Position numbers and translations under genes: made by a program. A model generated the notes under the pieces. The model had not been told where the DNA came from, made no database searches, and worked only from the letters and a program-made list of their open reading frames with translations. From NCBI GenBank assembly GCA_041648505.1, contig JBAZOY010000001.1, forward strand, positions 79,540-143,539: a DNA stretch of 64,000 nt, in the 5' to 3' direction. Positions 1 to 20,395 of the stretch are shown here, in pieces (the first letter of the stretch is position 1; each line of letters opens with the position of its first letter). This stretch comes from Syntrophales bacterium (GTDB taxonomy: Bacteria; Desulfobacterota; Syntrophia; Syntrophales; CG2-30-49-12).

Positions 1-399
1 TCTTGTAGTTATCCACCTCCATGGTTTTACATTCCATACAACGGTCCCATCACCAACTTTATTATCATCTCTCCAGATTGGTTCAGACGTGCCACTTGTA
101 CCTGCGGTAATGCAAGTATAATAACGTCCATTCATGCTTATGGGTAGGACCTTGTCGCCAACACTATAATTCGTTAAACTTTTCCACTTTGGGAATTGAT
201 TATAATCCGCAGTTATATTTGCCATGACTCTGTTCAGATTCGATGATGATCTCAACCATTTGATGGGATCGCTGCTCTTTACTAAAGAGGAGGATAAAAA
301 TGTGATCATCATCGCGCTGAAAATTGCCACGAAAAAGACCGTAATAATAATCTCTATAAGTGTAAATCCCGATTGTCTTATGCAATTTTTACGCTTCAT
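1..399 (-). CDS. Prepilin-type minor pilin/pseudopilin, partial (C-terminus lies beyond the left window edge)
   Basis: My own minus-strand translation from the ATG at 399 gives MKRKNCIRQSGFTLIEIIITVFFVAIFSAMM..., with a class III signal G|FTLIE followed by a hydrophobic helix. The start overlaps the stop of the upstream pilin gene in an ATGA (396-399). It is absent from the ORF track because no stop lies in the window. Confidence 0.75.
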   Translation of the reverse strand, partial: MKRKNCIRQSGFTLIEIIITVFFVAIFSAMMITFLSSSLVKSSDPIKWLRSSSNLNRVMANITADYNQFPKWKSLTNYSVGDKVLPISMNGRYYTCITAGTSGTSEPIWRDDNKVGDGTVVWNVKPWRWITTR

Positions 400-887
400 G
401 GGATAAAACCGGTATTTTTTGTAATGATAATTGTTTTCTTAATGCTCGACTGAGAGAGCTCGAGATTTACGTCGTTTGTTCCCGGCGATCCCCAATCATT
501 AAATACCACCACTGTACCCACCCCTGAGGTTATATTGATTCCTTCCGGGAAGCTGTGTGTCTCAGAAGGGGGAGTTTCGCCGGGGAGATTAAATGCCACT
601 CTTGTCCCTACATCATTACGCCTGTAGAGCGTATATGTTTTTGCGTCGGCTATTTCGAGTTCCCAGCGGGGATTATTATTTGGTTGTAAGGTATCGCCCA
701 TCGCCTTGATCTGTGCAAATCTCAGGTGCGATTTTATAATCCCTTCCTGCGCGATTAAATCCGCATCATTCGTCGAATACCTGTTGACGGCCACAGGGGT
801 AAGAATGGCGAGCAGGATCAATACCACCACAATCTCGATCATGGTGAAGCCGCGCTGATTGATATTACATTTGCAGAATCGTTTCAT
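396..887 (-). CDS. Minor pilin, FimT/GspH-like (prepilin N-terminal methylation domain)
   Basis: N-terminus ...NQRGFTMIEIVVVLILLAIL is a prepilin cleavage/methylation motif. The following LIAQEGIIKSHLRFAQIKA resembles the FimT/GspH helix. The gene is translationally coupled to the next pilin gene. Confidence 0.8.
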   Translation of the reverse strand: MKRFCKCNINQRGFTMIEIVVVLILLAILTPVAVNRYSTNDADLIAQEGIIKSHLRFAQIKAMGDTLQPNNNPRWELEIADAKTYTLYRRNDVGTRVAFNLPGETPPSETHSFPEGINITSGVGTVVVFNDWGSPGTNDVNLELSQSSIKKTIIITKNTGFIP

Positions 888-2357: not shown

Positions 2358-4331
2358 TCATTCCTGTAATAAATAATCGAAACTTACAGGATTCCGCCCG
2401 GCCGTAGAGATCACTTCGTCCATTCCCTTCAGGGATTTCGCTCTATTGGATTTTATCACTTCACGGTACTTTCCCATCTTCAGGGCCTCATCGAAGTACT
2501 CCATCGCATCCTTTTTTTCTCCCAGATAGTAGTGGGCAATGGCCAGGTTATTAAGCGCCTCCGAATTTTCAGGCAGCAGCGTAATGGCGGTTCTGAAAAA
2601 CCATAAAGCTTCACTGTAATCACCTATCCAGATGAAATAGACGCCAAGATCATTGTAGCCCTTATGGTTAAGAAAATTCAAAACAAGGACGCTTCCAAAC
2701 TGCCTGAGTGCCTCCCGGCCGTCGTTTGCCCTGAAAGCCGTAATCCCTGCCTTAAGGTGTGCGGATTCTTTTTTCATTGAATCCTCTTCCGGTTCGACCA
2801 GTTGTTCAATTCTGAATAACGGGTAGTATTTTTTAACTTTTAGAAGAGTAACGGCAAGGTTTCCCAGGGCCTTTCTATAATCTGGTCTGATCGTGATCGC
2901 CTCATGATAGAGAAATATTGCCTCAATCAAATCGTCCTTTACGATGCAATTAGCCAGGTTATTACGCGCCCAGTAACTGCCGGGATTAACCTTTAAGGCA
3001 TGGGTGTACAATTTAATCCCGTTCTCCCAGGTCTTCGCCTGAACGAAGGTTGTCAGCATAAGCATTACAAGGATAAGGAAAACAGGCAATAGATGAAAAA
3101 ACCTTCTTTCCCGGCGGATAAATATCGCGACGGCCAAAGCCGGTCCCATCATGGAAAAGTAGAGATAGCGATCCGCAACCGTCGAGAACCGCTGAAACAA
3201 AAAAGGAACGATACCGGATACGGGAAGGAAACCCGCCAGAAATATGAGAAAACATGCCAGGTAAAGGGGGCATCTCCGCCGCAGACACCAGAGCGCAACA
3301 AGTAAGCCCAGGGAAACGGTCCAGGAGAGGTATCCCCACCATTGGCTAAGAACAAATTCCGGAGTGCGGGCATAATCAATACCCAGCGATGCGGGATAAA
3401 ATAATTTACCCAGATAAAATGTTGCCGCATCGAAGGCAACAAAAGGTCTCAACCATACAGGCGATATGTATGGCAGCAACTCTGTGCTTTGTACGTGGAT
3501 CGTAACAAGCATTGATAACAGTGAGAGGATAACCCAGGGGATAATGTTCCTCAAGTTGGCTTTATATTCTATCCGGAAAAAGAAGTGATTGATGATGACA
3601 AGAAAGAGGGGAACGACAACACTGACAGGTTTTGCCATGAGGGCAGGAAAGAAACAGGCCAGCGAAAGGCTGTAGTAGAGGTTTTTTAGCCGGTTGTCTT
3701 TAGCCTCCTCTGTTTTCAGGCGCTGATAGATCAGGTAAAGCTGAATGGAGAGGAGGGAAAAAAAACAGGCCAGCAGTGTTCTCAGCTCGGTAATATAAGC
3801 CACGGTTTCCACCTGGACGGGGTGGATGCCAAAAAGTAAAGCACCCAGGAAGGCGGAAAACTTATCTTTAACCAGTGAAGATACGATCAGAAAGATGAGG
3901 ACTGTGTTCAGCAGATGAAGGAAAATATTTATGAGGTGGAATACCCGTGCATGAACGAGATACTCACTGTCCTGGGGCAGATGGTGAGAAACAGAACTCC
4001 ATAATACGGACCATACTGTATAGGTAAGAGGGATATAGAGTTTTAAAAAAGGTTTTTTCCAGTAATTCAGGATGTTTTCAACGCTACCCTCTTTTAGAGG
4101 TTCGTTTTCTGTGATGTTGGGCAGATCATCCCATACAAACGAACTGTTATTAAAGAGCGGGGCATACGAAAGAGATAAAAGGCAGACAATAATTAAGGTT
4201 GATATGGCAAAGCGGAAGGATGGCAAATAAAGCACCTGTTTTACGGAGACAAACCCTTGCCAGCTCTCCCAAGTGTGTCCCCCCCCCATCCACGCGGGGA
4301 GGGGCACAGAAGAAAGGATATTATCCGACAT
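2358..4331 (-). CDS. Multi-TM GT-C-type glycosyltransferase (PMT/ArnT/TMTC-like) with C-terminal TPR repeats
   Basis: About 430 aa of repeated hydrophobic helices, with an acidic FVWDDLPNITENEPL motif in the first loop as in PMT/TMTC enzymes. The C-terminal ~220 aa have TPR-like repeats (YWARNNLANC..., ALNNLAIAHYYLGEKKDAMEYFDEALK). Confidence 0.65.
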   Translation of the reverse strand: MSDNILSSVPLPAWMGGGHTWESWQGFVSVKQVLYLPSFRFAISTLIIVCLLSLSYAPLFNNSSFVWDDLPNITENEPLKEGSVENILNYWKKPFLKLYIPLTYTVWSVLWSSVSHHLPQDSEYLVHARVFHLINIFLHLLNTVLIFLIVSSLVKDKFSAFLGALLFGIHPVQVETVAYITELRTLLACFFSLLSIQLYLIYQRLKTEEAKDNRLKNLYYSLSLACFFPALMAKPVSVVVPLFLVIINHFFFRIEYKANLRNIIPWVILSLLSMLVTIHVQSTELLPYISPVWLRPFVAFDAATFYLGKLFYPASLGIDYARTPEFVLSQWWGYLSWTVSLGLLVALWCLRRRCPLYLACFLIFLAGFLPVSGIVPFLFQRFSTVADRYLYFSMMGPALAVAIFIRRERRFFHLLPVFLILVMLMLTTFVQAKTWENGIKLYTHALKVNPGSYWARNNLANCIVKDDLIEAIFLYHEAITIRPDYRKALGNLAVTLLKVKKYYPLFRIEQLVEPEEDSMKKESAHLKAGITAFRANDGREALRQFGSVLVLNFLNHKGYNDLGVYFIWIGDYSEALWFFRTAITLLPENSEALNNLAIAHYYLGEKKDAMEYFDEALKMGKYREVIKSNRAKSLKGMDEVISTAGRNPVSFDYLLQE

Positions 4332-4346
4332 TGAAGGGTCTTACTT

Positions 4347-4781
4347 TTATTCCGAAACGCTTACTGTCCAGAAGTAAGGCTCGTTGGTCGTGTCATCCGG
4401 TGCGACCCTGGTAAAGGTGACAGTCTTGCCTTTAAAGTCAAATCCAGTAGCGCTCACAATAGAAAGATTGCTGTTCCAGTCTTCTCCCAGTTTTGTATCC
4501 GGCCCGGATACGGTGTCACCATTTCCTGCGGTTAAACTTAAGCCCGGCGCCGGATAGGCGCCGAGGCCATCCTTCAATTTCCACTCCGCGAGTTTCAATC
4601 TTTCCCGGGCACAAAGTTCCGACTTAGCGCCGCCTGACGATTTCTCTATTGCATCCTTGCGCATATCGAGATACTTCGGAATCGCTACCGCCGCCAGAAT
4701 ACCGAGGATAACAAGCACGGCAATAATCTCAATGAGGGTAAAACCTTCTTCATTTTTCATGATCTTTCTTGTTTTAATCAT
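4347..4781 (-). CDS. Type IV pilin (candidate major pilin of the locus)
   Basis: MIKTRKIMKNEEG|FTLIEIIAVLVILGILAAVAIPKYL is a prepilin leader plus conserved N-terminal helix. A GGGAGG RBS lies 7 nt upstream and a sigma-54 promoter lies further upstream. Confidence 0.85.
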   Translation of the reverse strand: MIKTRKIMKNEEGFTLIEIIAVLVILGILAAVAIPKYLDMRKDAIEKSSGGAKSELCARERLKLAEWKLKDGLGAYPAPGLSLTAGNGDTVSGPDTKLGEDWNSNLSIVSATGFDFKGKTVTFTRVAPDDTTNEPYFWTVSVSE

Positions 4782-4846: not shown

Positions 4847-5004
4847 TACATTAAAGCTAAGGGGACACGGACCACGGAATATATCCCCGTAAAAACATAA
4901 GTATCTGTTAATATTTGATATTTATTTTATAAAAATCTTACTTTGCGATAAAGGACCCGACCTCTGGTAAAGTACGAAGAGCCAGGTTCTTCGTACAATG
5001 ATGG

Positions 5005-6348
5005 TTAATCTACATTTTTTGTAGCTGTTTGTTTGAAAGGATCGGTGTCTATCCCGTATTTTTTGATCCGGTGCCAGAGACTGCGCTGGTTGATGCCGAG
5101 AACTTCGGCAGCCCTTGCCTGAACTCCCGCGGTACGGTTCAGGGCTTCGATGATCAGGCCTTTTTCAACCTCCTCCAAACGTTCATCAATTGTCGTGGAA
5201 TCGGGGAAACCTTCGGAGACCTGGCCGCTCATTGGGCCTATAATATTTGCCGGCAGATGCGACGGCTCGATGAGGCCGTCTTCAGTAAGGACGGCTGACC
5301 TTTCTATGGTATTTTGAAGCTCCCTGATGTTACCCGGCCACGAATACCCGGTAATTACCTGAAGGGCCGGTGGAGATAGTCTGACCGATTCAGATTTTTT
5401 TTCGAGAAAATGTTCTACCAGATAGGGAATATCTTCCCGGCGCTCCCTTAAAGGCGGCAGGTAGATGGAAAAAACATTGATTCGGTAATACAGGTCTTCC
5501 CGAAATAGTCCTTCTTTGACCATCTGGGGAAGGTTCTTGTTCGTCGCCGCGATAAAACGGATATTTACTTTGATTGTCCGGGTTCCCCCCACCCGTTCAA
5601 ACTCTTTTTCCTGCAAGACGCGCAGTATCTTTGCCTGCGTTGTAAGAGGCATGTCACCGATTTCATCTAAAAAAACGGTGCCGCCGTTGGCGGCCTCAAA
5701 TTTGCCGATTTTTTGAGAGATTGCACCGGTAAATGCCCCCTTTTCATAGCCGAACAGTTCACTCTCAAGGAGATTTTCCGGGATTGCCACGCAATTAATT
5801 TTGACAAATGGTTTTCCGCGGCGCAGGCTGTATTCGTAAATACTTGTTGCCACAAGCTCCTTCCCTGTTCCGCTTTCCCCCGATATGAGAACGGTCGAGT
5901 CCGTCGGCGCAACCTTCAGTATCTGCGTGAATATACCTCTCATAACCTTGCTCTGACCGATAATACCCGGGAAAAGTTCCTTTGCCTCAACCTTACTCAG
6001 AATATTTGTGACCTCAATAAATACATCGGAGAAGTGCTCCAGCGTATCTTTTGCCTGTTTTTCTTTTTCCCGTGGTTTCGGAAAGACCGGCAGGCTTTCC
6101 GCCTTTTTTATAAATTTCGTAACCGGTCTCAGCATAATCCACGTAATTATCAGGCCAACAATAAAAGTCAGGAACGCAACGGCAATCTCCCACACCATAA
6201 ATGGCCAGACTTTAACATTTGCAACTCCCCCACTTAGCAGACGGGCAGTAATAATAACCCATAAAAGGGACAGACCGCTGAAAGTGAAGGGAACCAGAAA
6301 ATACAAGCTGACAGGAAAATATTGTTTTCTTATTTTCTTCATTCTCAT
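5005..6348 (-). CDS. Sigma-54-dependent transcriptional activator (bEBP), N-terminally membrane-anchored, no receiver domain
   Basis: AAA+ core with GESGTGKE (Walker A) and the GAFTGA loop, and a C-terminal Fis-type HTH (AAEVLGINQRSLWHRIKKYGI). The N-terminal ~75 aa form two hydrophobic helices. The start overlaps the stop of the platform gene by 1 nt. Confidence 0.85.
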   Translation of the reverse strand: MRMKKIRKQYFPVSLYFLVPFTFSGLSLLWVIITARLLSGGVANVKVWPFMVWEIAVAFLTFIVGLIITWIMLRPVTKFIKKAESLPVFPKPREKEKQAKDTLEHFSDVFIEVTNILSKVEAKELFPGIIGQSKVMRGIFTQILKVAPTDSTVLISGESGTGKELVATSIYEYSLRRGKPFVKINCVAIPENLLESELFGYEKGAFTGAISQKIGKFEAANGGTVFLDEIGDMPLTTQAKILRVLQEKEFERVGGTRTIKVNIRFIAATNKNLPQMVKEGLFREDLYYRINVFSIYLPPLRERREDIPYLVEHFLEKKSESVRLSPPALQVITGYSWPGNIRELQNTIERSAVLTEDGLIEPSHLPANIIGPMSGQVSEGFPDSTTIDERLEEVEKGLIIEALNRTAGVQARAAEVLGINQRSLWHRIKKYGIDTDPFKQTATKNVD

Positions 6349-7577
6349 TATTTAGCCATTTGGGTCAGGTTCCACATGGGTAAAAATATTGCCAGTGCAA
6401 AAAACCCTACTACGGCAGCTAAAGCAACTATCAAAACGGGGCCGATGAGATCTGAAAGTCTCTTTACCGTATAGCTCACCTCATCGTCGTAATGCTCTGT
6501 CACCTGAAGCAACATCTCTTCAATATTCCCTGTTTCTTCCCCAATGGCAACCATGTCTACAACCATGGGGGTAAAGTACTTGGAGGAACCGAGGGGAACG
6601 GCTATACCGCGTCCTTCTTTTATCTGTTCCCGGATCCCGTCGAATTCACGCGCAATGGCCTTATTACCGATGATACTGGACAAGACCGTCATCGCGTTAA
6701 TGACAGGGGTACCGCTGGAATATAACATGCCGAATATACTGGCAAAACGGGACATAGCCGCCTTTATGAACAGGGGGCCTAAAAAGGGAATGCGGAGGAT
6801 TAAAGAATCTTTTATGTATTCTCCCTGTTCTGTTTTGAAAAAGCTTTTTAACCCCACGATCAACGCAATTAAACCAAAGATAAGCAGGTGCCAGTAATGG
6901 AATAAAAACTGATAGAGCATTATGGCGATCTGAGTCGGAATAGGAAGGGTAAGGCCGGACTTGGAAAACATCGACGCAAATTTTGGCACGACAAAGGTAA
7001 GCAGAACAAAAAAAGCAATGGTTAAAGTGATGCAGACGACCATAGGATATTGCAGGGCGGATTTGATATCGGACTTAATCTTTCCTTCATGTTCAATAAT
7101 ATATATAAGACGGTCAAGCGCCTCCGGGACAGTGCCGCTCATCTCTCCCGCTTTGATCATGCTGCGATAGAGCGGTGAGAATATGGTCCCATGCCTGTTC
7201 ATGGCCGCAGACAGCCCTGATCCGCTTTTGATATCCTGGGAAATTACAGAGATGGCGGCTTTTAGGGTACGATCCTCTGTCTGGGCCTCCAGGACCTGAA
7301 AAGACCTTACCAGGGGCACTCCTGCTTTGAACAGAGAGCGGAACTGTTTTGTAAAGATAATTAAATCGGTTATCCCTACAGGGCTTAGTTTCTGATTGAG
7401 TCTCTGCCACCATCCGGCTTGTGAAGCCGCCCCCACTGTTTTTTTCTCCGTCACCTTAGAGGGGATATATCCCCTGTCGGCAAGCATACCCGCCGCTATC
7501 TCGGCGGATTCAGCCTCTATGTCGCCGGTGATAAAACCTCCCTGTTCGTTTATGGCTTTGTAAAAATAGTTAGGCAT
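6348..7577 (-). CDS. pilC: Type II secretion F-family / type IV pilus platform protein (PilC/MshG-like)
   Basis: 409 aa with a duplicated GspF-type domain and 3 TM segments. It sits directly downstream of the pilus ATPase. Confidence 0.9.
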   Translation of the reverse strand: MPNYFYKAINEQGGFITGDIEAESAEIAAGMLADRGYIPSKVTEKKTVGAASQAGWWQRLNQKLSPVGITDLIIFTKQFRSLFKAGVPLVRSFQVLEAQTEDRTLKAAISVISQDIKSGSGLSAAMNRHGTIFSPLYRSMIKAGEMSGTVPEALDRLIYIIEHEGKIKSDIKSALQYPMVVCITLTIAFFVLLTFVVPKFASMFSKSGLTLPIPTQIAIMLYQFLFHYWHLLIFGLIALIVGLKSFFKTEQGEYIKDSLILRIPFLGPLFIKAAMSRFASIFGMLYSSGTPVINAMTVLSSIIGNKAIAREFDGIREQIKEGRGIAVPLGSSKYFTPMVVDMVAIGEETGNIEEMLLQVTEHYDDEVSYTVKRLSDLIGPVLIVALAAVVGFFALAIFLPMWNLTQMAK

Positions 7578-7607: not shown

Positions 7608-9317
7608 CTACATTATCACCGCTGAGGTTGCTTCTTCAAGTGTCGTTATCCCCCGGAGTACCTTATTACCCGCGTCGTATTTCAAGGTTCTGAGGTTACC
7701 CTCTTCTACGGCCTTGCGCGCAATTTCATGGGCTGAACATTTTCTCATAATCATGTCCTGGATCAAATGGTCGTTAATGAGTACCTCGAATATACCTGTT
7801 CTTCCCTTATACCCCGTATTTAAACACTGGTTGCAACCCCGGCCGCGCTGAAAATTCGCAAAGTCCCACCTTTCAAGTCCCCAGGAGGCAAGCACATCTT
7901 CGGGTGGATTGTACTGTTCTCTGCAGTACGGGCAAACAGTTCTCACCAGGCGCTGGGCAATAGAGACCAGGAGGGTGGAAGAAAGGAGAAACGGTTCAAT
8001 TCCCATATCAATAAAACGCGAGATGGCTCCAACTGCATCGTTCGTATGTACCGTACTTAAAACACGGTGACCGGTCTGCGCAGCTTGCGTGGCAATTGCC
8101 GCTGTTTCGCCATCCCTGATCTCGCCGACCATTATTATATCGGGGTCCTGACGGAGTATTGATCTTAGACCACTGGCAAATGTCATCCCTGCTTTCCTGT
8201 TCAGCTGGATCTGCCTGATATTTTCAATCCGGTATTCCACAGGATCCTCCAGGGTCATGATATTGCTGTCAGGACGGTTGAGTTCGTTCAAGATAGCATA
8301 AATGCTTGTACTCTTACCGCTTCCCGTCGGTCCGGTGCTCAGTATCATACCGTAAGGTTTCTTTACGATAGCCCTGATTTTCTCTATATCCGATTTGACC
8401 ATCCCGATGCGATCCAGTGAATATATCCCCGCACTTGTATCCAGAAGCCGCAGGACGAGATTTTCTCCGTAAATGGTCGGTATGGAAGACGCACGGACAT
8501 TGATTTCTTTCTTCTCCATGCGAAGGGTAAACCGCCCGTCCTGAGGTATCCTCGTTACGGTAATATCCATATTTGACAGGATTTTTATCCTGGCTGCAAT
8601 TCCTAAAAACATATGTTTGGGGGGAGATTGTACCTCATGGAGCTTGCCGTCTATACGGAACCGAAGCTGTATATTATTCTGCTGGGGACTGAGGTGAATA
8701 TCACTGGCCCCCTCGTGTATGCCCTGGACAAAGATCGAGTTAACAAGCCTTATAATAGGTGCCTCTCCTGCCATGTCCTGAAGGGAAGCTAACTGTATAT
8801 CTGCCATACCCTCGTCTTCGTCTTTTTCCTGAACAAGTTTAGCTTCAATATCTTCTATGCTATCCAGGACACTGCCAAGACCTGACTGAACACCGTAGAG
8901 ATTGCTTATTATCTGATTCAGTTCACGCTCAGTACATACTACCGCTTCTACTTCACAATTTGTCAGTGTTTCAATAGCATCAAAAGTATTAATATCAAGG
9001 GGATCCAGCATGGCGATCGTTAATAGACGACCTTTTCTCGCCAAAGGTGCTATCTGACATTGCTGTGCGTAATCTATAGGGATTAATGCTGAGAGTTCGA
9101 GTTCACAGGGGTATTTACTGGGGTGAAATCTTCTTATTTTCAACTGCCTGCCGAGCACATCTATTATCTGTTCCTCGGTTACAATTCCTCGCTGGACAAG
9201 AATCTGACCGAGCTTCAGATCACTCTTCCCCTGTTCGGTAAGAGCTTTTTCGAGTTGCTCTTCCGTCAGCAGATTTTCCTCGATAAGTATTTCGCCTAAC
9301 CTCTTTCTGCCGGCCAT
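7608..9317 (-). CDS. mshE: Type IV pilus assembly ATPase, MshE-type (GspE family with N-terminal MshEN domain)
   Basis: Walker A GPTGSGKST and a tetracysteine CPYC...CNQC. The N-terminus carries two 24-aa RLGxxLIxxNLLxxxxLxxxLxxQ / KLGxxLVxxGIVxxxxIxxxLxxQ motifs separated by 5 aa. Confidence 0.9.
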   Translation of the reverse strand: MAGRKRLGEILIEENLLTEEQLEKALTEQGKSDLKLGQILVQRGIVTEEQIIDVLGRQLKIRRFHPSKYPCELELSALIPIDYAQQCQIAPLARKGRLLTIAMLDPLDINTFDAIETLTNCEVEAVVCTERELNQIISNLYGVQSGLGSVLDSIEDIEAKLVQEKDEDEGMADIQLASLQDMAGEAPIIRLVNSIFVQGIHEGASDIHLSPQQNNIQLRFRIDGKLHEVQSPPKHMFLGIAARIKILSNMDITVTRIPQDGRFTLRMEKKEINVRASSIPTIYGENLVLRLLDTSAGIYSLDRIGMVKSDIEKIRAIVKKPYGMILSTGPTGSGKSTSIYAILNELNRPDSNIMTLEDPVEYRIENIRQIQLNRKAGMTFASGLRSILRQDPDIIMVGEIRDGETAAIATQAAQTGHRVLSTVHTNDAVGAISRFIDMGIEPFLLSSTLLVSIAQRLVRTVCPYCREQYNPPEDVLASWGLERWDFANFQRGRGCNQCLNTGYKGRTGIFEVLINDHLIQDMIMRKCSAHEIARKAVEEGNLRTLKYDAGNKVLRGITTLEEATSAVIM

Positions 9318-9334: not shown

Positions 9335-9370
9335 TTATTCCAATTCTAAATCAAAGCGCTATCTTCGTTG
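9335..9370. repeat. Family B repeat end (partial copy B1)
   Basis: TTATTCCAATTCTAAATCAAAGCGCTATCTTCGTTG is identical to the reverse complement of 46061-46096. It overlaps the last codons and stop of the ExeA-like gene. Confidence 0.8.
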
Positions 9371-10933
9371 ATTTTTAAAAAACACTGTATCATCATCCGG
9401 TTTGGATATGATTTTTGCGTGTAACGTAAGCGGAGATGGTAAATTTCTTACCGCACCCAGGGCTGATTCCCTGTTGACATAACCATCTTTCAAGAAGATG
9501 GAGAATACCAGCCCTTCCCTGAAATTCCAGTACGGAAGAAACATTAACGACGGTAACGCACGTTCATAACTCTTGTATAATTCATAGATTTCTTCGATAT
9601 TTTCGCCACTTGCTACCTGCACCCAGTATTTTCCAGGAGAAAGATGTTTTGATTTTGCGGGAAGCGCCGGAAGCTTGATCACTTCACCGGCTCTCACCTG
9701 ATTAAGATCCTTGAGATGTTGATTCGCAAGGACAACCGCCTGAAATTGCTCAAAAGATAAATCCCCATAAAAATCAGCAGCTGTACGCCACACGGTTCTA
9801 TCCTTTTTTAATCTCACCCCCCCCAGTAGATCAGGCATCGTTTTTGGAACCGCCGGTAATCCCGCCGACACCTCTTCTGCCACTGCTTCGGTCACAGAGG
9901 TTGTGCCCATACCAACCATCTCCGATGCAGAATTAATAACCGGAGAGGGATTCCGGACATTGATAAGGATTGTATGTTTTTTCTCTTTCCCGTAATCGAA
10001 TATTTTAGAGGGGTACAGTCCTGCTACTATCACGAATACACATAAAGCGGTCAGGACCGTTGCCGCTATCCATTTTACATTCCTCCGCTGCTCTAAAAAG
10101 CTTCTCCCTCTACGGGCACAGGAACGAACGAGGAACCATCCGGCTCTTGAACGGTTCTGGATGATCAATGCCAGGATAATCTGATGACACAGAGTTACAA
10201 TCTTCCTCGGATAACCCCCAGTTGCCATATAAAGAGCCCATAAACCCGGGTAAGTAAACAGTGAAGGCGCTTTATCGGTATCGCCGGCTTTTGCAAGACG
10301 GGATATGACCATGCCCCGTGTCTCCCGGAAATTAAGGGGATTCAGGAAATAGTAGAGGTTAACCCGGTCGGCGACGTTCATCATTCTCTTTAACGTCTGT
10401 TCAAATTCCCTCTGGGCAAAGATAACAATCTGGAGTATTTTATACTCATTCGTCTCGTAATTGAGAAATTCGCGCAGCAACTCAAGACAAAAATCCGGCA
10501 GTTTCTGCCCTTCATCAATAAGGAGAACTACCGTCCTTTCATCATCAACGGCCGATTTAAAGAGATAATTTTTGATGCTTTCCCTGAGCTGCCATTCGCT
10601 GTCAAGGCTATCCGATCCGGCAACGCCGAATGTCATCGCTACAACAGATAAAAATTCACGGGGGTTTGTAAAGGCTGGGTCCATGAGAAGGTGTGCTTCT
10701 ATTCTTTCTCCATCCTTTTCAGAAGCGGCAAATTTAAGTAAAAGTTGGCGACAGAGAGTGGTTTTTCCTGTCCCCACATCCCCAATCACCACATTTAATC
10801 CTCGACGGAGACGTACGGCAAGTTCTAACTCTTGCAGGCAACCAGTATGCTCAAGAGAGGGGAAGAAGAATTCCGGTTCCGGCGAGTTGGAAAAAGGCTC
10901 CCTGTTCAGGTTTAAAATCCTGAAATAATCCAT
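9359..10933 (-). CDS. ExeA/MshM-like AAA ATPase with TM segment and periplasmic C-terminal domain
   Basis: GDVGTGKTTLCRQLL (Walker A) and ...VVLLIDEGQKL (Walker B), then a mid-protein TM helix (WIAATVLTALCVFVIVAGLY). The C-terminal region is SPOR/LysM-like. Confidence 0.8.
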   Translation of the reverse strand: MDYFRILNLNREPFSNSPEPEFFFPSLEHTGCLQELELAVRLRRGLNVVIGDVGTGKTTLCRQLLLKFAASEKDGERIEAHLLMDPAFTNPREFLSVVAMTFGVAGSDSLDSEWQLRESIKNYLFKSAVDDERTVVLLIDEGQKLPDFCLELLREFLNYETNEYKILQIVIFAQREFEQTLKRMMNVADRVNLYYFLNPLNFRETRGMVISRLAKAGDTDKAPSLFTYPGLWALYMATGGYPRKIVTLCHQIILALIIQNRSRAGWFLVRSCARRGRSFLEQRRNVKWIAATVLTALCVFVIVAGLYPSKIFDYGKEKKHTILINVRNPSPVINSASEMVGMGTTSVTEAVAEEVSAGLPAVPKTMPDLLGGVRLKKDRTVWRTAADFYGDLSFEQFQAVVLANQHLKDLNQVRAGEVIKLPALPAKSKHLSPGKYWVQVASGENIEEIYELYKSYERALPSLMFLPYWNFREGLVFSIFLKDGYVNRESALGAVRNLPSPLTLHAKIISKPDDDTVFFKNQRR

Positions 10934-10946
10934 GGTTCCACTTCTC

Positions 10947-12578
10947 TTATTGAATAGAATTTGCCGGAGGCACAGGTGATTTTTCGCTTGCCGAAACCGC
11001 CTGAGTCGGCGGCAGTATTGTCGGAGTTATGAAAATGAGAACTTCCTGCATAGATTCGCTTTTACCTGCCCCCTTGAAAAACCATCCCAGCAGGGGAATA
11101 TCCTTCAGCAAGGGGACACCGACTTGCGCATCCTCTTTCTTCTGTTTTGTCAATCCGGAGATAACAATCGTTTCCCCATCCTGAACGATCAGAGACGTGT
11201 TTGTCTCCTTTTTGTAGATGTAAGGGTTCCCCTGTACATTCCTGGAGTTGTCCACCTCATCCTTCTTTACCACCACTTTCATTTTGAGATTCTTGCCGTC
11301 AATCACATGAGGGGTAATCTCCAGCCGGAGAACCACATCCTCGAATTTTACCGACCTCGTAATAGCGCCGGTTGCACTTGTTTCTTCCGTTATATAGGGA
11401 ACTTTCTCCCCGTTTTCCGTATACGCTGTTTGATTGTCCAGAGTTGTAATCGAAGGGCTGGAAAGGATATTCAATTTTCCTTCTTTCTGGAGAGCATTTA
11501 ACTGCATCTCTAAAATGTTGCCCCCGATGGTCCCAAACATGAGACCCAGCGTCCCCGATCCTGTAATGGACGTCTGCGAAGGAGCATTAAAGGCAAACCC
11601 CTGACCACTCAGTCCCGTTCCGCCATACCCGGGAGTATAATTGCCGCTTATCGGATCGCCTGTACCCGACGTTCCACCCGGGGTGATCCAGATCCCTTTA
11701 TCTCCAAATCTAGTACTGTACATGCCACCCCATGAAATCCCAAGATTACGGGCAGTGTCTTGAGTTGTCTCTACAATGTTGGCCTTTATCAGGATCTGCG
11801 GCGTAGGTTTATCTATTTCGTTGATAATCGGCATCATCCTTTCGAGGTCATCCCGGCTTGCCTGAATAATCAGGCTATTACTGTGTGCATTTACCTGTAC
11901 CGATCCCCGTTGTTTACCATCCTTATCTTTTGTTAAAAATTCCTGAAGATTTTCTTTAAGCTTGGGGGCATCCGCATAATCGATGCTGATCACTCTGGTC
12001 AACAGGGGCTGCATCTGCTGAATGCTGATTTCCTGGGCCTTTTGCTTCAGCTCCCGGTCCTTATCTTCCAGGGTTATTACCCTGACAATATTTCCTTCCC
12101 ACTGATAATACAGGCCCTGGTTTTGAAGAATACCCTTAAAAGCGACGTCCCAGGGGACTTCCTTGAAATCAACGGTAATTTCTCCCTTTACCTCATCTTT
12201 GATTAAAATGTTCTGCTCTTCAATTCGGGCCAATGCCCGTATAACAGCCTTGACATCAGCCTGCCGCATTTTCAGGGTAATTTTTCTCACCGGCAGTTGC
12301 CTGTCCTTAACAGACTTCACATCTTTTTCAAGAGAACTGCTCTCCTTCTGCGCACTCCCTGTAACGTCAATGTCTTTCCTGCCGGGAGCCGGAGAATGTC
12401 CTCTTGCCGTCTCTGCCATCTCTTGCCATTTTTCGAAGAAGGGATCTTTTTTTGTCGCCACTTCTTTTACACATCCCGAAAGGGCTATCACCATTCCCAG
12501 AACAAGCGCCAGTCTCCCCCACTTTTTCTTAAAAGCGGCGTTAAACAATATTATCCCCTCCTTCCCTAAAAAATTCAC
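10947..12578 (-). CDS. pilQ: Type IV pilus secretin (PilQ/MshL-like), lipoprotein
   Basis: Lipobox ...VIALSGC, and a C-terminal secretin domain (…VPLLKDIPLLGWFFKG…EVLIFITPTIL). Confidence 0.9.
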   Translation of the reverse strand: MNFLGKEGIILFNAAFKKKWGRLALVLGMVIALSGCVKEVATKKDPFFEKWQEMAETARGHSPAPGRKDIDVTGSAQKESSSLEKDVKSVKDRQLPVRKITLKMRQADVKAVIRALARIEEQNILIKDEVKGEITVDFKEVPWDVAFKGILQNQGLYYQWEGNIVRVITLEDKDRELKQKAQEISIQQMQPLLTRVISIDYADAPKLKENLQEFLTKDKDGKQRGSVQVNAHSNSLIIQASRDDLERMMPIINEIDKPTPQILIKANIVETTQDTARNLGISWGGMYSTRFGDKGIWITPGGTSGTGDPISGNYTPGYGGTGLSGQGFAFNAPSQTSITGSGTLGLMFGTIGGNILEMQLNALQKEGKLNILSSPSITTLDNQTAYTENGEKVPYITEETSATGAITRSVKFEDVVLRLEITPHVIDGKNLKMKVVVKKDEVDNSRNVQGNPYIYKKETNTSLIVQDGETIVISGLTKQKKEDAQVGVPLLKDIPLLGWFFKGAGKSESMQEVLIFITPTILPPTQAVSASEKSPVPPANSIQ

Positions 12579-13084
12579 TCCTGCAATAAGATAGCGAATT
12601 CAGCTTCACGTCTTTCATTTAAAATCATAACCTTATCCGGATATATCTCTTTCAGAACATAACCTTCTATCTCTAAAGGTTCACCTGCTGCATACTCGAT
12701 ACCGTTGATTATCGCTATCTTCTTCCTGTTCATCTCTAAATAGCCGGAGTAACTGAATTTTGCTTCCGATCCGGGGCCGCTGTCTGCTTCGGCTTTTCCC
12801 TTAAGAGTTACCCAGTCACGAAAATATTTATTCAGATAAAACGGGTTATTCTTCCATTGCGTTTCAGCACGGCTGACTATGTAAGCATCAACAGCCGAGA
12901 GCTGATTTCCCGTTATGCCCGCGGTTATATCAGATACGAAAGCGCCCAGGTCGCTTGATTTTGCCGCCATATCAACCGGGGCATTTTTCGCCCGCGAGGC
13001 GATGAAGAAATCATAAGCACCATAGCAAATCACTATCGCCATAACGGAGAGAATGAGTATCTGTTGTTTTGTCAACTTCGGCAT
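12575..13084 (-). CDS. PilP/MshK-like pilus assembly protein
   Basis: N-terminal TM helix. The C-terminal YSGYLEMNRKKIAIINGIEYAAGEPLEIEGYVLKEI pattern is typical of PilP/GspC-type beta domains. It overlaps the secretin gene by 4 nt. Confidence 0.55.
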   Translation of the reverse strand: MPKLTKQQILILSVMAIVICYGAYDFFIASRAKNAPVDMAAKSSDLGAFVSDITAGITGNQLSAVDAYIVSRAETQWKNNPFYLNKYFRDWVTLKGKAEADSGPGSEAKFSYSGYLEMNRKKIAIINGIEYAAGEPLEIEGYVLKEIYPDKVMILNERREAEFAILLQE

Positions 13085-13103: not shown

Positions 13104-13643
13104 TTACTGACTTAAGGCAAGAATGGTTTTCACCTTGAATTCCATGACTTCCCGGTTCTGCTGAATCTGTATTTCCTCTATATGTTCTAAGTAAGGGACA
13201 CCTCCCAGGGCAATTAAAAATCCGCGAAGATCAGGAAAATCACCCGCAATAATTATTTCAACAGGAAGAAAATTATGATCGGTATCGGTTGAATTAAGGT
13301 CTGGAGAAATTGATACTATATTCATACCGGTATTTTTAGCTATATTCCTGAAAGTTATCGAGATTACTCCTATTGCCTCCCGGGATAATTTAGTCTTATC
13401 GGGAAAAGGCAGCACCGATGACATTTTCTTCTCAGACCTGCTTTTCAACGACTGATATATGGGATGGTATGTTTTTTGTTCTTCCGACTGAAATTGTAAG
13501 GCACCAATCTTACGCACCAATTTCGCCGACGCCAGATAATTGGGGATGATCCCGGCAAAGACAATCAGCAACACCCCTGCCAAACAGATCAAAAGGTTAA
13601 CCAGCGTCTCTCTGGGGATCATGTCTTTTATTTTTCGCCACAT
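13104..13643 (-). CDS. PilO/MshJ-like pilus assembly protein
   Basis: Single N-terminal TM helix followed by a coiled segment and an alpha/beta domain. It is positioned between the PilMN and PilP-like genes. Confidence 0.55.
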   Translation of the reverse strand: MWRKIKDMIPRETLVNLLICLAGVLLIVFAGIIPNYLASAKLVRKIGALQFQSEEQKTYHPIYQSLKSRSEKKMSSVLPFPDKTKLSREAIGVISITFRNIAKNTGMNIVSISPDLNSTDTDHNFLPVEIIIAGDFPDLRGFLIALGGVPYLEHIEEIQIQQNREVMEFKVKTILALSQ

Positions 13644-13652
13644 TACCGAACC

Positions 13653-15515
13653 TTATCCTATTCCTATATCAATTATGAAATGCAGGACATCATCTCTCTT
13701 GAAATGTTCAACGCTGTTTTTCTTAATGCTGACCTGCTGGAACATCGGCGAGCGCTCCAGCTTCATGATATAATCGGCAAATAATACATCGAGTGTTTTG
13801 CGGTCTCCCAAAATCAGGCCCTCCATGACCAGGTTTTTTGCCCTTTCTTTTTTGGCCCCTATTTGATGTTTAGCACTACCGAGGTAAACCTTCAGATCAA
13901 TGAGACGTACATTTTCCGGCGTCATTTCAGACAACTCGCCAATGATCGCCGTTCCCAGGTATCTATCACTGTACGCTTTAGACGCCTGCTGAAGCTGTTT
14001 AGAAGTAGCGGCCATCCGGGACAGCAGTTTTTGATCAACACGGGGTTTGTACTGCAACAGCTGTTCTTCAAGCTGTGATATTTCGGATTTCTTCTGATTA
14101 ATGGCGTGCAGTTGAGAAAGGAAAACGCCTGCACAAATTAATGCAACAGTTATCAGGGATGCGAAGGCTACACGCGTAATGCGGGCAACATTGGTAAGTT
14201 TTTCTTTATTTTTAGATCTAACTAAAAAATTGGGGGTATATTCGTGATCCGAGAGGGCGAGTCCCAGGGCAGGAGTTAAAGCAATTCTCTCCGGCATAGA
14301 AATATCGAGAGTATCTTTTTGGGGCAACGGAAGCTGAAGAAACTTGAAGGGATCAAGGATATCGCTCTCTATAGCAAGCTGATCACCCACGCATGCAATA
14401 ATGGGCATAGATAAACTCATCACGCTTGATACGTAAATTTTATCAACTCTGTCATAACCCAGGTTTGTACTGTAATGTTTAAATGTCCTCTCTACCTGTC
14501 TGATCACCCTTTCCAGGGCAGGTAAAATAATGGCAAATTTTTCTTCTTCTTTTAAAGTAAAACCTACATCGCCCGCAGTTAACGGCGGGAAGTCAGGACT
14601 GAGGCTGAAAAATACTTTCCGTGCCTCTTCCATGCTCGTTCGGATTGGTTCTCCTTCTATTCCAGACAATTTTGGCAGCAATTCATTAATTCTCTCCTGC
14701 AGAGATTCAACCATGCTGTTAATCCCGGCCTTGATACCCCTGGTCATGGTGAGCTTTCCCCGGGCATAGATATCAATACGTGAGAAATCATTACCTATGA
14801 ACAGACTTGCAAGCGTACTCTCAGCAGCAGGAAGCCACTCCGTAAGGAATATGTTCTGAATGGCAAAGGATGCGACGGATATGCCATCTAACGGGAAGCC
14901 GATTTCGTTGAATTGTTTCTTTAACCCTTCGATCTCATATCTGGGAGCTGTGTAAACCATCGCCGACAACTTCTGCACAGCACCTTCAGTAATTTCTCCC
15001 TGAATTTCATAGTCGAATACTGTTTCTTTTTCATCGAAGGGGAGTTCTTTTCTAACCGTCCAGTAAATGGCATTCTCTATGTGTTTTTTTGCAACCTTGG
15101 GAATCCTGATATGTCGCACATTAACCCGTGCCGAAGACATAATCGCCCATAGATGTAAATTTTTATAGGTTCCACAGAATTTAGATATTTCATTCCTTAG
15201 AAAATTGTTAAACTCGGGTAACTTCCTCGATGTTATATGGCTGAGTGATACACTCCTCCAGTCAATTAACGTCCACCTGTTATCATTAGACGGTGCTGTT
15301 TTCACCATCCTGAGGTACTCATGGCCGATATCGACGCCAACGTTTATTGTCCTTTTTTCAGAAAGGGTTTTTAAGGGAATAACATTTTTTTTCTCTTTAG
15401 GCGGGTCAATATCAGGTTTCTGAACGGGATCAGGGGCGGTAGAATCCTTCTTACTTCGGATTAGATCAAGCAGCTTTTCTGTAGAAGTAATATCTTTCAA
15501 ACGGGACATTTTCAC
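13653..15515 (-). CDS. PilM-PilN fusion (MshI-like) pilus assembly protein
   Basis: N-terminal actin-like ATPase fold (INVGVDIGHEYLRMVK...), then a TM helix (VAFASLITVALICAGVFL) and a PilN-like coiled/ferredoxin region. Confidence 0.75.
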   Translation of the reverse strand: MKMSRLKDITSTEKLLDLIRSKKDSTAPDPVQKPDIDPPKEKKNVIPLKTLSEKRTINVGVDIGHEYLRMVKTAPSNDNRWTLIDWRSVSLSHITSRKLPEFNNFLRNEISKFCGTYKNLHLWAIMSSARVNVRHIRIPKVAKKHIENAIYWTVRKELPFDEKETVFDYEIQGEITEGAVQKLSAMVYTAPRYEIEGLKKQFNEIGFPLDGISVASFAIQNIFLTEWLPAAESTLASLFIGNDFSRIDIYARGKLTMTRGIKAGINSMVESLQERINELLPKLSGIEGEPIRTSMEEARKVFFSLSPDFPPLTAGDVGFTLKEEEKFAIILPALERVIRQVERTFKHYSTNLGYDRVDKIYVSSVMSLSMPIIACVGDQLAIESDILDPFKFLQLPLPQKDTLDISMPERIALTPALGLALSDHEYTPNFLVRSKNKEKLTNVARITRVAFASLITVALICAGVFLSQLHAINQKKSEISQLEEQLLQYKPRVDQKLLSRMAATSKQLQQASKAYSDRYLGTAIIGELSEMTPENVRLIDLKVYLGSAKHQIGAKKERAKNLVMEGLILGDRKTLDVLFADYIMKLERSPMFQQVSIKKNSVEHFKRDDVLHFIIDIGIG

Positions 15516-18536: not shown

Positions 18537-19208
18537 TTAGCGCTTTCTGTAAACGATAACCCCGATATCATCTCCACCCGGAGCGGCATCGCTAGTTTTT
18601 GTCTCAACCATCCCGTTGGGACCGGCAGAAAGAACCCAACCGCTTGCAGGAATACTTGAGTGGAGCGTGGCAGTGTGCATCCCCTCCACATAGACAAGAT
18701 AGTTTTTCCCCCAGGGATCAACCCTTCTCATCCTTTCCACGTAAGGACCTTTCCAGTCCACCTGACTTAAAGTAAGATTAGTCCTGTAAAAGTTATTTGG
18801 CGCCGCTCCCAGGGTTCCTCCCGGGTTATCCGCTACGATATGATTCTCCGCATGATCCACTACAGTCATATTGTCCCATGTGATTTGAACACCTGTACCC
18901 CAGGCATTAGGATCCGTTGTTGTATCATTCGTAGGGCCGCTCCTTAAAACTTGATAATAACTCTCTGTAGTTGCTGATCTTGCCGGCCAGACCCCTGTGT
19001 CGGCATAGAATGATGCTATAGAGGCTGCAATGTATTTACAGTCTTCAAGGGCACCAGTCTCCCCACCCTTTTTTATCTTATCAACAGCGATGGGAATTAC
19101 CACGGCAGCCAAAACAGACGTTACCGCCAGTACTGCCGTTACTTCAATCAGGGTATAACCCTTTTCCTTTAAGGTCCTCCTGAATTTTTCTAAAATTTTC
19201 TTCAACAT
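18537..19208 (-). CDS. GspG-like pilin/pseudopilin (prepilin N-terminal domain)
   Basis: KGYTLIEVTAVLAVTSVLAAVVIP prepilin motif, a GPYVERMRRVDPWGKNYLV GspG-type core and a C-terminal GGDDIGV. Confidence 0.8.
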   Translation of the reverse strand: MLKKILEKFRRTLKEKGYTLIEVTAVLAVTSVLAAVVIPIAVDKIKKGGETGALEDCKYIAASIASFYADTGVWPARSATTESYYQVLRSGPTNDTTTDPNAWGTGVQITWDNMTVVDHAENHIVADNPGGTLGAAPNNFYRTNLTLSQVDWKGPYVERMRRVDPWGKNYLVYVEGMHTATLHSSIPASGWVLSAGPNGMVETKTSDAAPGGDDIGVIVYRKR

Positions 19209-19271: not shown

Positions 19272-19862
19272 TTATTTTATCCTGAACAGGATATCGTCTC
19301 CACCAATTGTAATTGAAGGCCCTGTTTGTCCAAAGACAGTTTCGAGTTCTTTATTAGGCCCGGCGGAAACAACAAACGCAGGCATGAAACCGCTTATATT
19401 AGCAGGCTGCAGACCTTTCACGTCAATGTAATATTTGTCTCCCCATGGGTCTTGCCTGACTCTTTCCAGATAGGGACCGCTCCATTTACTCTTTCCTGAT
19501 GTAGGATAGGCTTGGACATTGGTGACCAGGTGGTCGGCCATATAGTCTATGGAAACCGGAATGGTTACGCCGGTACCAACAGCCGGTGTATCCCCCTCAT
19601 TGCTATGAAGGCCATCATATTTTGTATCAGATGACTGCCTCGCCGTGCCCACTGCCCATACAGGCCAATCTTTCATGTCCTTGTTAAAGGCCAGTACTGC
19701 ATTTGTTATGGTCTGTACGTCCGCCTCTGCCGCAGTTATCTTAGCATCTCCTATAGAGCTGAGCATCATGGGGGTAAGCACCGCCGCCAGGATAGCAACT
19801 ACAGCCAGGATCACAATAATCTCAATCAGGGTAAACCCCTTTTTGTTTTTTAACATCTTCAC
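19272..19862 (-). CDS. GspG-like pilin/pseudopilin, paralog of 18537-19208
   Basis: KKGFTLIEIIVILAVVAILAAVLTP, then GPYLERVRQDPWGDKYYIDV and a C-terminal GGDDILF. A sigma-54 promoter lies upstream. Confidence 0.8.
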   Translation of the reverse strand: MKMLKNKKGFTLIEIIVILAVVAILAAVLTPMMLSSIGDAKITAAEADVQTITNAVLAFNKDMKDWPVWAVGTARQSSDTKYDGLHSNEGDTPAVGTGVTIPVSIDYMADHLVTNVQAYPTSGKSKWSGPYLERVRQDPWGDKYYIDVKGLQPANISGFMPAFVVSAGPNKELETVFGQTGPSITIGGDDILFRIK

Positions 19863-19963: not shown

Positions 19964-20042
19964 ATAATGAGCCGGTTTCCTAATTATTGGACACCAACCT
20001 TAATCTTCACAATAATTGGCAACCGGCAGCAGAAAACACTTA

Positions 20043-20169
20043 TCTACTTTTAGTAGAAATAGATAAGGTGATTTCCCGATAATTACTGATTCAAGTAATT
20101 GATACTAAATGATTTCATGAAAAATCTACTATAAAGGAAATTCGAGCGTAAAAATCTACTAATAGTAGA
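20043..20169. promoter_or_regulatory. Candidate enhancer (UAS) sites: TCTACT-N3-AGTAGA palindromes
   Basis: TCTACTTTTAGTAGA at 20043-20057 and TCTACTAATAGTAGA at 20155-20169, plus a half-site AAAATCTACT at 20121-20130. They lie 80-200 bp upstream of the sigma-54 promoter. Confidence 0.5.
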
Positions 20170-20284
20170 ACTTCCTGAAGTATCCTGATTGCCCCCCTTC
20201 CGTTTTCTGCCTGATGAGGAGTTTTACCAATTAACTTGATATTGTTTTTTATAATTGTTATATTTTTGATAAATATATAAGATG

Positions 20285-20395
20285 TAATCAGTTAAGTGAT
20301 GGGCTATAGAAAAGAGGCCTTTGCAGCGGGGTGAGACGTGCATGGTCGGAAAAGATTTCTGAGCGTCGATAAATACAAATTTCAAAATTCTCGAG
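20285..20395. repeat. Family A repeat (half copy A2, inverted orientation)
   Basis: The reverse complement reads ...GAAATTTGTATTTATCGACGCTCAGAAATCTTTTCCGACCATGCACGTCTCACCCCGCTGCAAAGGCC..., which aligns to 24486-24560. Confidence 0.7.

Follow-up and report, generated by a model that had tools for sequence, protein, structure and literature searches.

Can a sigma-54-dependent pilin gene be controlled by an activator that itself sits in the membrane? The question is raised by a gene at positions 5005–6348 of a 64,000-nucleotide stretch from a Syntrophales bacterium (contig JBAZOY010000001.1), called the window below, which lies in a type IV pilus operon and encodes a sigma-54 enhancer-binding protein (EBP). 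EBPs are textbook soluble AAA+ activators whose switch is a receiver, a ligand-binding domain or a partner acting in trans. The first-pass annotation, made from the DNA sequence, had described the window EBP as an activator tethered to the membrane, with neither a receiver nor a sensor domain. Our comparative analysis suggests that it is very probably a membrane-anchored EBP dedicated to the adjacent pilin gene, and places it in a family that is widespread in one clade, uncharacterised and annotated generically in databases. The gene and its parts are as follows:

5005..6348, minus strand: EBP gene, 447 residues from the ATG at 6348 (open reading frame call)
6244..6318, minus strand: hydrophobic helix 1, residues ~11–35, with S14-L15-Y16 and P20 in the predicted cytoplasmic half (hydropathy, AlphaFold2, alignment)
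6127..6207, minus strand: hydrophobic helix 2, residues ~48–74, with W53 (hydropathy, AlphaFold2, alignment)
5968..6126, minus strand: juxtamembrane helix-loop-helix, residues 75–127, a putative transducer and dimerisation element (alignment, AlphaFold2)
5464..5964, minus strand: sigma-54 interaction AAA+ domain, residues 129–295 (Pfam Sigma54_activat, E 6.8e-74)
5239..5448, minus strand: AAA+ lid, residues 301–370 (Pfam AAA_lid_14)
5056..5178, minus strand: Fis-type DNA-binding HTH_8, residues 391–431 (Pfam, E 2.5e-14)

The protein has each testable defining feature of the sigma-54 EBPs (PF00158), namely, an AAA+ domain with Walker A, Walker B and GAFTGA motifs, a C-terminal helix-turn-helix (HTH) domain and a −24/−12 element at the target gene. 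Walker A (GESGTGKE), Walker B (FLDEIGD) and GAFTGA (nt 5739–5722) are all intact, and the AAA+ core and Fis-type HTH recognised at first pass were confirmed by Pfam and by reading of the sequence. The structures of NifA, FleQ, NtrC, ZraR and NtrC1 aligned to the window EBP at E 1e-91 to 1e-70, and the solved EBPs (NifA, FleQ, NtrC, ZraR, NtrC1/4 and PspF) aligned only from residue ~118–130 on. All NCBIfam matches (NifA, PrdR, AtoC, NtrC and others) began at residue 91 or later and fell under their curated cut-offs; therefore, no named EBP family claims this protein, whose AAA+ core is as near to NifA, AtoC and NtrC as to any named EBP family. Pfam gave no REC, PAS, GAF or HAMP match in the full protein even at E ≤ 1, in agreement with the predicted absence of a sensor or receiver domain.

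The ATG at 6348–6346 has one base in common with the TAA of the preceding platform gene (TAATG), as was first read. An alternative ATG six nucleotides downstream, at 6342, gives a 445-residue form; the identical database protein (P0001, 'MAG: Syntrophales bacterium', 445 residues; MAG, metagenome-assembled genome) uses this start, and the family alignment fits it better than the start at 6348. The platform and EBP genes abut whichever of the two ATGs is used.

The first 127 residues set the protein apart. Kyte-Doolittle 19-residue windows exceeded 1.6 at residues ~11–35 and ~45–77, and AlphaFold2 placed helices at 11–39, 47–84/85 and 99/102–125 with a loop at 86–98. The predicted local distance difference test score (pLDDT) was ~75–85 in both hydrophobic helices and lower in the remaining N-terminus; the full-length model (pLDDT 64) was used for secondary structure only. 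All 134 full-length relatives showed two hydrophobic peaks, neither more nor fewer (mean 2.2 and 2.5), and no hydrophobic window past residue 130, a family-wide pattern that matches the two transmembrane (TM) helices predicted for this gene. Additionally, these 134 proteins average ~3 K/R ahead of helix 1 and another ~3 within the 15 residues that follow helix 2. The pattern fits an N-in/C-in hairpin with a variable outer loop of 10–15 residues, a topology predicted from hydropathy and the positive-inside rule.

The segment between the hairpin and the AAA+ domain had been taken for a short linker. This did not hold: it is a conserved helix-loop-helix of ~50 residues, heptad-patterned and about as conserved as the AAA+ lid. 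P75 starts an amphipathic helix (V76/F79/A83/L86) that is continuous with TM2. A Pro-rich connector (residues 87–100) separates it from a second helix with a 3-4 heptad pattern (L103/F106/F110/V113/L117/V120, read from the alignment), which runs straight towards the AAA+ domain and ends 3–4 residues ahead of it. In 29 closer relatives (N-terminal identity to the window of at least 47%), S14, L15, Y16, P20, W53 and P75 are invariant, as is the juxtamembrane VEAxExFP motif; the same six residues are conserved, not invariant, in members down to 37% identity. Across relatives down to 37% identity, column identity was 0.52 in TM1, 0.39 in TM2, 0.54 in the second juxtamembrane (heptad) helix and 0.55 in the AAA+ lid, with 0.23 in the outer loop. 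Judged from this alignment, the N-terminal module is constrained beyond the needs of a passive anchor, and the juxtamembrane helix-loop-helix is probably a transducer. Since protein-level conservation reaches down to 37% overall identity, a mis-called start or a non-coding N-terminus was ruled out.

No known domain was recognised in this module. Pfam on the 29 N-termini (E ≤ 10) returned only noise, with no REC and no HAMP, and NCBIfam recognised no domain in residues 1–127. A search of PDB sequences with the 29-member N-terminal profile gave a best E of 1.5 (TM2 of a kinase) and nothing significant, and all Foldseek matches of the N-terminal model against PDB had E > 3. The layout does match that of HAMP transducers (TM2, conserved Pro, amphipathic helix, ~14-residue connector, second heptad amphipathic helix). 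When the family profile was compared by hhalign with six HAMP sequences (Af1503, verified against PDB, and five others), the segment covering the TM2 exit and the first amphipathic segment (AS1) aligned at 17% probability (P 0.0015), over just 17 AS1 columns. Because Pfam was negative for the full EBP as well as for the 29 N-termini and the hhalign probability was only 17%, we do not call the juxtamembrane region HAMP and describe it as HAMP-like in topology only.

Which gene would such an activator serve? The immediate neighbourhood is as follows:

7608..9317, minus strand: MshE-type extension ATPase, MshEN and T2SSE (Pfam)
6348..7577, minus strand: platform protein of the T2SSF/PilC/MshG type (Pfam), whose stop abuts or overlaps the EBP start
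4846-4832, minus strand: sigma-54 −24/−12 element TGGCATGCAAGATGC, 49 nt upstream of the pilin ATG
4347..4781, minus strand: major type IV pilin with N_methyl motif (Pfam), the presumed EBP target
2358..4331, minus strand: polytopic membrane and TPR protein of 657 residues, starting 15 nt after the pilin stop

The order MshE-platform-EBP-pilin was found in six independent metagenome loci (EBPs 64–70% identical), where the distance from platform stop to EBP start ranged from −4 to +5 nt, and was kept in all 33 GTDB species loci having upstream sequence. Even a 38%-identical member (L046:870-2724) retained the platform-EBP-pilin order, and in L001–L008 the same gene order as that of the window cluster was found. 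One relative, P0170 (L045), has no platform gene before the EBP. The mature N-terminus of the pilin, FTLIEIIAVLVILGILAAVAIPKY, is essentially invariant across loci.

The sigma-54 promoter proposed for the major pilin gene is as widely kept as the gene order. An equivalent GG-N10-GC element, with 8–11 of 11 consensus positions, was present in the EBP-pilin spacer of 6/6 metagenome loci, and a −24/−12 element preceded the pilin in 29/29 GTDB loci with downstream sequence. With a background of ~0.058 such elements per 260 nt, or ~0.057 expected per spacer, 7/7 by chance would have a probability of ~2e-9; the loci are related, yet the spacers around the element have otherwise diverged. In the 64 kb, the sigma-54 consensus alone was not rarer than expected by chance, and we therefore regard TGGCATGCAAGATGC as validated by its conservation in related loci and not by the consensus. 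No sigma-70-like site was found in the EBP-pilin spacer of the window. A sigma-54 promoter ahead of the assembly operon was considered and rejected: upstream of pilM, neither the window nor the related loci have a −24/−12 element, and just chance-level sigma-70-like sites occur there. A terminator between EBP and pilin was likewise dismissed, the candidate being a 9-bp hairpin (~4972–4996) that lacks a T-tract and folds like its shuffles (z −0.95).

In the 108 nt upstream of the −24 element (window 4848–4955 and 27 related loci), CTGTC/GACAG was the top enriched 5-mer, occurring in 9/28 loci against 1.4 expected (z 6.8). The PilR site of P. aeruginosa is (C/G)TGTC, and the CTGTC-type motif is a possible binding site of the EBP, a likeness that is only suggestive. 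In addition, several loci (among them L030, L027 and L035) have tandem 7-bp C-rich repeats, for example (CCCCTGA)n, directly upstream of −24; the window counterpart is CCGTGGTCCGTGTCCCC. Downstream of the pilin, the N-terminal half of the 657-residue protein is polytopic and belongs to no recognised family, and TPRs follow at the C-terminus. A homologous TPR gene is also found 3' of the pilin in L003/L004, and the window gene probably shares the sigma-54 transcript with the pilin, judging from its position.

If the EBP were a PilR, a receiver and a cognate PilS-type kinase should accompany it. The receiver was tested for and is absent from the protein. In the 64-kb window, Pfam on large open reading frames, tblastn with kinase and REC probes and motif scans found no histidine kinase, receiver or second EBP, which upholds the earlier statement that no partner kinase is encoded nearby. 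With both tested and absent, PilR identity was rejected. At the far end of most orthologous clusters (L001, L003/4, L006 and L008), a kinase gene does occur together with a gene for a REC-Guanylate_cyc protein (class III cyclase); the window stops before the equivalent position. The pairs, each with a kinase of ~313 residues and on the opposite strand, are as follows:

L001:18076-20011, opposite strand: kinase and REC-Guanylate_cyc pair
L003:17146-19079, opposite strand: kinase and REC-Guanylate_cyc pair
L006:15926-17859, opposite strand: kinase and REC-Guanylate_cyc pair
L008:15815-17750, opposite strand: kinase and REC-Guanylate_cyc pair

The EBP lacks a receiver that could take phosphate from this kinase, which rules the pair out as its phospho-partner.

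The survey of orthologs for the same architecture returned more than 130 full-length relatives, all from Desulfobacterota of the Syntrophales/Desulfobacterales type; named members come from Syntrophales, Syntrophaceae, 'Deltaproteobacteria' and Desulfobacterium sp. N47. More than 120 clusters at identities of at least 64% have the same length (~441–446 residues) and the same Pfam set. A 128-position profile of the N-terminus, searched against 1.84 billion representative proteins, matched 100 clusters at E ≤ 1e-3, and Sigma54_activat directly followed the module in every full-length match examined. By this search, the N-terminal module was confined to proteins in which a sigma-54 AAA+ domain follows it. 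Across 185,579 GTDB species genomes, a pattern scan yielded 34 loci, every one in a Desulfobacterota-type MAG or enrichment genome; the count is a lower bound, given that the scan was limited by its pattern. Labels from the Joint Genome Institute (JGI) on many members (P0002, P0010, P0013 and others) read 'transcriptional regulator with GAF/PAS, ATPase and Fis domain' or 'response regulator AtoC'. These names are propagated misannotations; the members concerned have no GAF, PAS or REC match in Pfam.

In a few proteins, the module and AAA+ core are joined to other outputs. Two are single open reading frames in which the HTH is replaced by an extension ATPase:

L009:10001-12868: P0129, 955 residues, hairpin, AAA+ and MshEN+T2SSE fusion
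L044:1092-3953: P0131, 953 residues, hairpin, AAA+ and MshEN+T2SSE fusion

In both, hairpin, juxtamembrane region, AAA+ core (with GSFTGA kept) and lid are followed by MshEN+T2SSE. They are 41–43% identical to the window EBP and 43–44% to the window MshE, and stand alone, outside pilus clusters. Because the order EBP-then-MshE reverses the gene order of the operon, they are not read-through artefacts. These fusions hint at a direct physical link between the transcription activator and the pilus motor. In another protein, P0128 (742 residues), the module and an AAA+ core that has lost GAFTGA are joined to HisKA-HATPase-REC. A fourth candidate, P0193, in which a platform protein is joined to the hairpin, probably arose as an artefact of a frameshift or gene overlap and was kept out of the evidence.

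Taken together, our best reading is that the window EBP could be a membrane-integrated, single-chain functional counterpart of PilS-PilR, coupling pilin transcription to the membrane pilus system. The idea of a PilR-like function without PilS, put forward at first pass, has strong comparative support for the major pilin: the adjacency of platform, EBP and pilin is invariant and the sigma-54 promoter is conserved, and from these we infer that the EBP activates the pilin promoter. The accompanying proposal that it senses the assembly machinery or the pilin pool gains indirect support from the conserved polar residues in TM1 and from the existence of the MshE-ATPase fusions, and stays conjectural. 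We put the probability of the whole chain, in which a membrane-integrated EBP takes its input from the platform/MshE motor and activates the pilin promoter, at roughly 0.4.

Under this reading, the EBP would be co-transcribed and translationally coupled with the assembly genes from PilM to platform, so that machine and activator would be made together, and would insert N-in/C-in beside the pilus machine. In the off state, the juxtamembrane helices might keep two AAA+ domains in an inactive dimer, in the manner of the coiled-coil linker of NtrC1/DctD. A contact within the membrane or at its cytoplasmic face would then lift the constraint. We favour the platform/MshE motor as the partner because of the EBP-MshE fusions and the operon coupling, with the pilin pool as a close alternative. 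The freed AAA+ domains would form a ring that remodels the sigma-54 holoenzyme at the pilin promoter, ~150–200 bp downstream of the EBP gene. Such a ring, tethered ~50 residues from the bilayer and with a flexible linker of ~20 residues between lid and HTH, would act at a locus that likely stays close to the membrane because the operon's many membrane proteins are inserted while being translated. The net logic would be 'machine first, subunit second', with PilS-PilR collapsed into a single membrane protein. In a stronger variant, which we consider unlikely, the hairpin docks on the platform/MshE and the sigma-54-activating AAA+ ring forms only on a hexameric machine that is complete. The onset of pilin transcription would then take place at the membrane, at the machine's own coding locus, and the hairpin-AAA+-MshE fusions would be the extreme case, with the activating ring covalently stacked on the extension ATPase.

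Several points weigh against this reading. Membrane insertion is predicted from hydropathy only, the AlphaFold2 models are monomeric and of modest confidence (pLDDT 64–69), a HAMP domain is not demonstrable, and the off-state dimer is an analogy only. The choice of machine over pilin as the input rests on two distant fusions found outside pilus clusters, and for the reach of a membrane-tethered hexamer to DNA we can offer only the proximity of the target to the EBP gene. In addition, rpoN was not among the open reading frames scanned in the window, which covers 64 kb of the genome. At the promoter, some pilin transcription may be read-through, because the hairpin after the EBP gene is unconvincing as a terminator. 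Finally, L046 has a 137-nt spacer without a recognisable −24/−12 element, in which a TTGACT...TTATTA arrangement occurs; the type of pilin promoter may have switched in this lineage.

The same locus can be read with a different input. The hairpin might bind the N-terminal helix of unassembled pilin, so that a full pool holds the EBP off and depletion during extension turns it on. The PilS-PilR system offers a precedent, as Kilmury and Burrows reportedly found in 2016 that PilS of P. aeruginosa senses PilA through intramembrane contact, and the presumed target of the window EBP is the pilin gene itself. Moreover, S14 and Y16 of TM1 are polar, invariant and at approximately the depth expected for Glu5 of the pilin, a depth estimated from the predicted topology, and the pilin helix is invariant across loci whereas the EBP N-terminus is only 45–66% identical. 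That same invariance leaves no covariation to be used, the EBP-MshE fusions without a nearby pilin gene go unexplained, and PilS has six TM helices with no sequence relation to the hairpin (no match in Pfam or PDB profile searches). We consider a pilin-binding hairpin nearly as likely as the motor reading. A cue of a more general kind, such as lipid packing, proton-motive force, envelope stress or surface contact, would suit two TM helices with a loop of fewer than 20 residues, as in intramembrane sensors, and P0170, whose gene is not preceded by a platform gene, would be accommodated. Linkage to platform and pilin genes is nearly absolute and points to a pilus-specific input, and the Pfam scans of the window found nearby neither an accessory transporter nor any partner of the kind that goes with intramembrane-sensing systems, which makes a general cue quite improbable.

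It may also be that the hairpin takes no input at all. As a mere anchor, it would localise a constitutively active EBP, with regulation left to transcription of the assembly operon; the tether might keep the activator near its own membrane-proximal locus or limit cross-talk with other sigma-54 promoters. This would agree with an outer loop that is short, variable and without a sensor domain, with a target promoter within ~200 bp of the EBP gene, and with operon coupling, through which EBP dose would already report machine synthesis. What makes it unlikely in our view is that conservation of TM1 and the juxtamembrane region (S14, Y16, P20, W53, P75 and VEAxExFP) is far above what a generic anchor needs, and that the module is kept in variants with other outputs (the MshE fusion and the hybrid kinase fusion). 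Alternatively, the EBP could be a tethered pro-activator from which regulated proteolysis frees a soluble AAA+-HTH fragment that then acts as an ordinary EBP. The Pro-rich connector is poorly conserved and predicted to be disordered, hence a plausible cleavage site, and release would solve the geometry of a membrane-bound hexamer. No protease gene is conserved in the cluster, and the conserved heptad helix, contiguous with the AAA+ domain, fits signal transmission and not release; we give proteolytic release very little credence.

A membrane-anchored EBP that reads the state of the pilus machine, the reading preferred here, would combine traits of several known systems. PilS-PilR of Pseudomonas, Myxococcus and Geobacter (for background, see PMC6058289) likewise has a Fis-HTH sigma-54 EBP that acts at the major pilin promoter, as would the window EBP, and a membrane-embedded input element within the same regulatory unit. 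The CTGTC enriched upstream of −24 recalls the PilR site. Unlike that system, the window EBP lacks receiver, kinase and phosphotransfer, a two-TM hairpin is fused to the EBP in place of the 6-TM kinase PilS, and the gene lies inside the assembly operon of a cluster of the mannose-sensitive haemagglutinin (MSHA) type. NtrC1, DctD and NtrC4, which are under negative control by a coiled-coil linker, share the heptad helix ending 3–4 residues before the AAA+ domain, and the solved cores of NtrC1 and NtrC4 align to the window EBP from residue 130 on, whereas they have a phosphorylatable receiver where the window EBP has a TM hairpin. PspF, controlled in trans by the membrane-associated PspA/B/C, also has no REC, PAS or GAF domain and an activity tied to the inner membrane; in contrast, PspF is soluble and begins at the AAA+ domain, and the window EBP has a covalent membrane link and a conserved N-terminal module of 127 residues.

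ToxR, TcpP and CadC are, similarly, single membrane-spanning polypeptides with a cytoplasmic DNA-binding output and no phosphorelay. They have one TM helix, a periplasmic sensor and an OmpR-type winged helix that acts at sigma-70 promoters, whereas the window EBP has a near-loopless hairpin, HTH_8 and an ATP-driven AAA+ ring acting on sigma-54. With a DNA-binding domain of the HTH_8 type and an outer loop of ~10–15 variable residues, neither the OmpR-type domain nor the periplasmic sensor is present, and a ToxR-type regulator was rejected. HAMP transducers and intramembrane-sensing kinases of the BceS/LiaS type resemble the window EBP in their two TM helices and minimal outer loop, and the HAMP transducers also in the conserved Pro at the TM2 exit followed by amphipathic helix, connector and second amphipathic helix; here, the connector is Pro-rich and not Gly-containing, and the output is an AAA+ activator and not a kinase or methyl-accepting chemotaxis protein.

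In the literature searched, no description of a membrane-anchored EBP was found, which, given incomplete coverage, is absence of evidence only; the EBP surveys of D. vulgaris and Clostridiales report none. A conserved family with membrane-embedded input would show that sigma-54 promoters can be driven from the membrane and, if it holds, that one polypeptide can replace the two-protein PilS-PilR circuit. It would also provide a compact genetic handle on the feedback from machine state or pilin pool to pilin synthesis. The hosts are Desulfobacterota with syntrophic and sulfate-reducing lifestyles, of which nearly all knowledge comes from metagenomes; in them, pili matter for aggregation and possibly for interspecies electron transfer. 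If the motor-templated ring proved true, sigma-54 open-complex formation would, for the first time, be seen to be driven by a membrane-embedded activator physically coupled to a secretion-type nanomachine.

The window contains a second sigma-54 element, which had also been noted at first pass:

19963-19948, minus strand: perfect sigma-54 consensus TGGCACGCCGCTTGCT, 85 nt upstream of the T2SSG-like pseudopilin pair
19272-19862 and 18537-19208: T2SSG-like pseudopilin pair

The element itself was found as predicted, perfect in consensus. Its link to the window EBP is unsupported. Two TCTACT-N3-AGTAGA palindromes lie ~94 and ~206 nt from its −24 (region 19964-20330), together with AGTAGATTTTT half-sites, and these palindromes are absent from the pilin promoter region. 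A search for an enhancer common to both sigma-54 promoters of the window found no shared palindrome, just A/T-rich 8-9-mers. The region 19964-20330 has the appearance of an enhancer recognised by an EBP with another specificity and, because its palindromes are missing at the pilin promoter, the promoter of the GspG-like pair is probably not a target of the window EBP. They are tied only by the absence of another EBP gene from the 64 kb.

The remaining genes of the pilus cluster are as follows:

13653-15515, minus strand: PilM_2 fusion
13104-13643, minus strand: PilO-like protein
12575-13084, minus strand: small protein
10947-12578, minus strand: secretin
9359-10933, minus strand: AAA_22 protein, MshM/ExeA-like
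396-887, minus strand: minor pilin

MshEN-ATPase, MshM-like AAA_22, secretin, PilM-type protein, platform and N-methyl pilin are present together, and the cluster is an MSHA-type type IV pilus gene cluster. As in the Vibrio MSHA operon (mshI-Q), the MshEN ATPase, the MshM/ExeA-like AAA_22 protein, secretin, PilM-type protein and platform are encoded in one operon. Unlike in Vibrio, the activator is a fixed member of the operon and the pilin has its own sigma-54 promoter; to our knowledge, no sigma-54 activator is embedded in the Vibrio MSHA clusters. Two small overlapping gene pairs (955-1333 and 1764-2309), inserted between the genes for the TPR protein and the minor pilin, resemble toxin-antitoxin modules, judged by sequence; the orthologous clusters lack them.

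Between the pilus operon and the pseudopilin pair, an open reading frame on the plus strand (16066-18360) encodes a 764-residue membrane protein with Wzy_C (O-antigen ligase-like) and TPR domains. Wzy_C proteins include the pilin O-oligosaccharyltransferases PglL/TfpO, and on this basis the product may glycosylate the pilin. In the extension ATPase, residues 1–60 (MshEN) contain two copies of the RLGxx(L/V/I)(L/V/I)xxG(L/V/I)(L/V/I)xxxxLxxxLxxQ type, the first with N for G. We take this motif to be the cyclic di-GMP (c-di-GMP)-binding signature of MshE, and because of this match, pilus extension may be c-di-GMP gated here.

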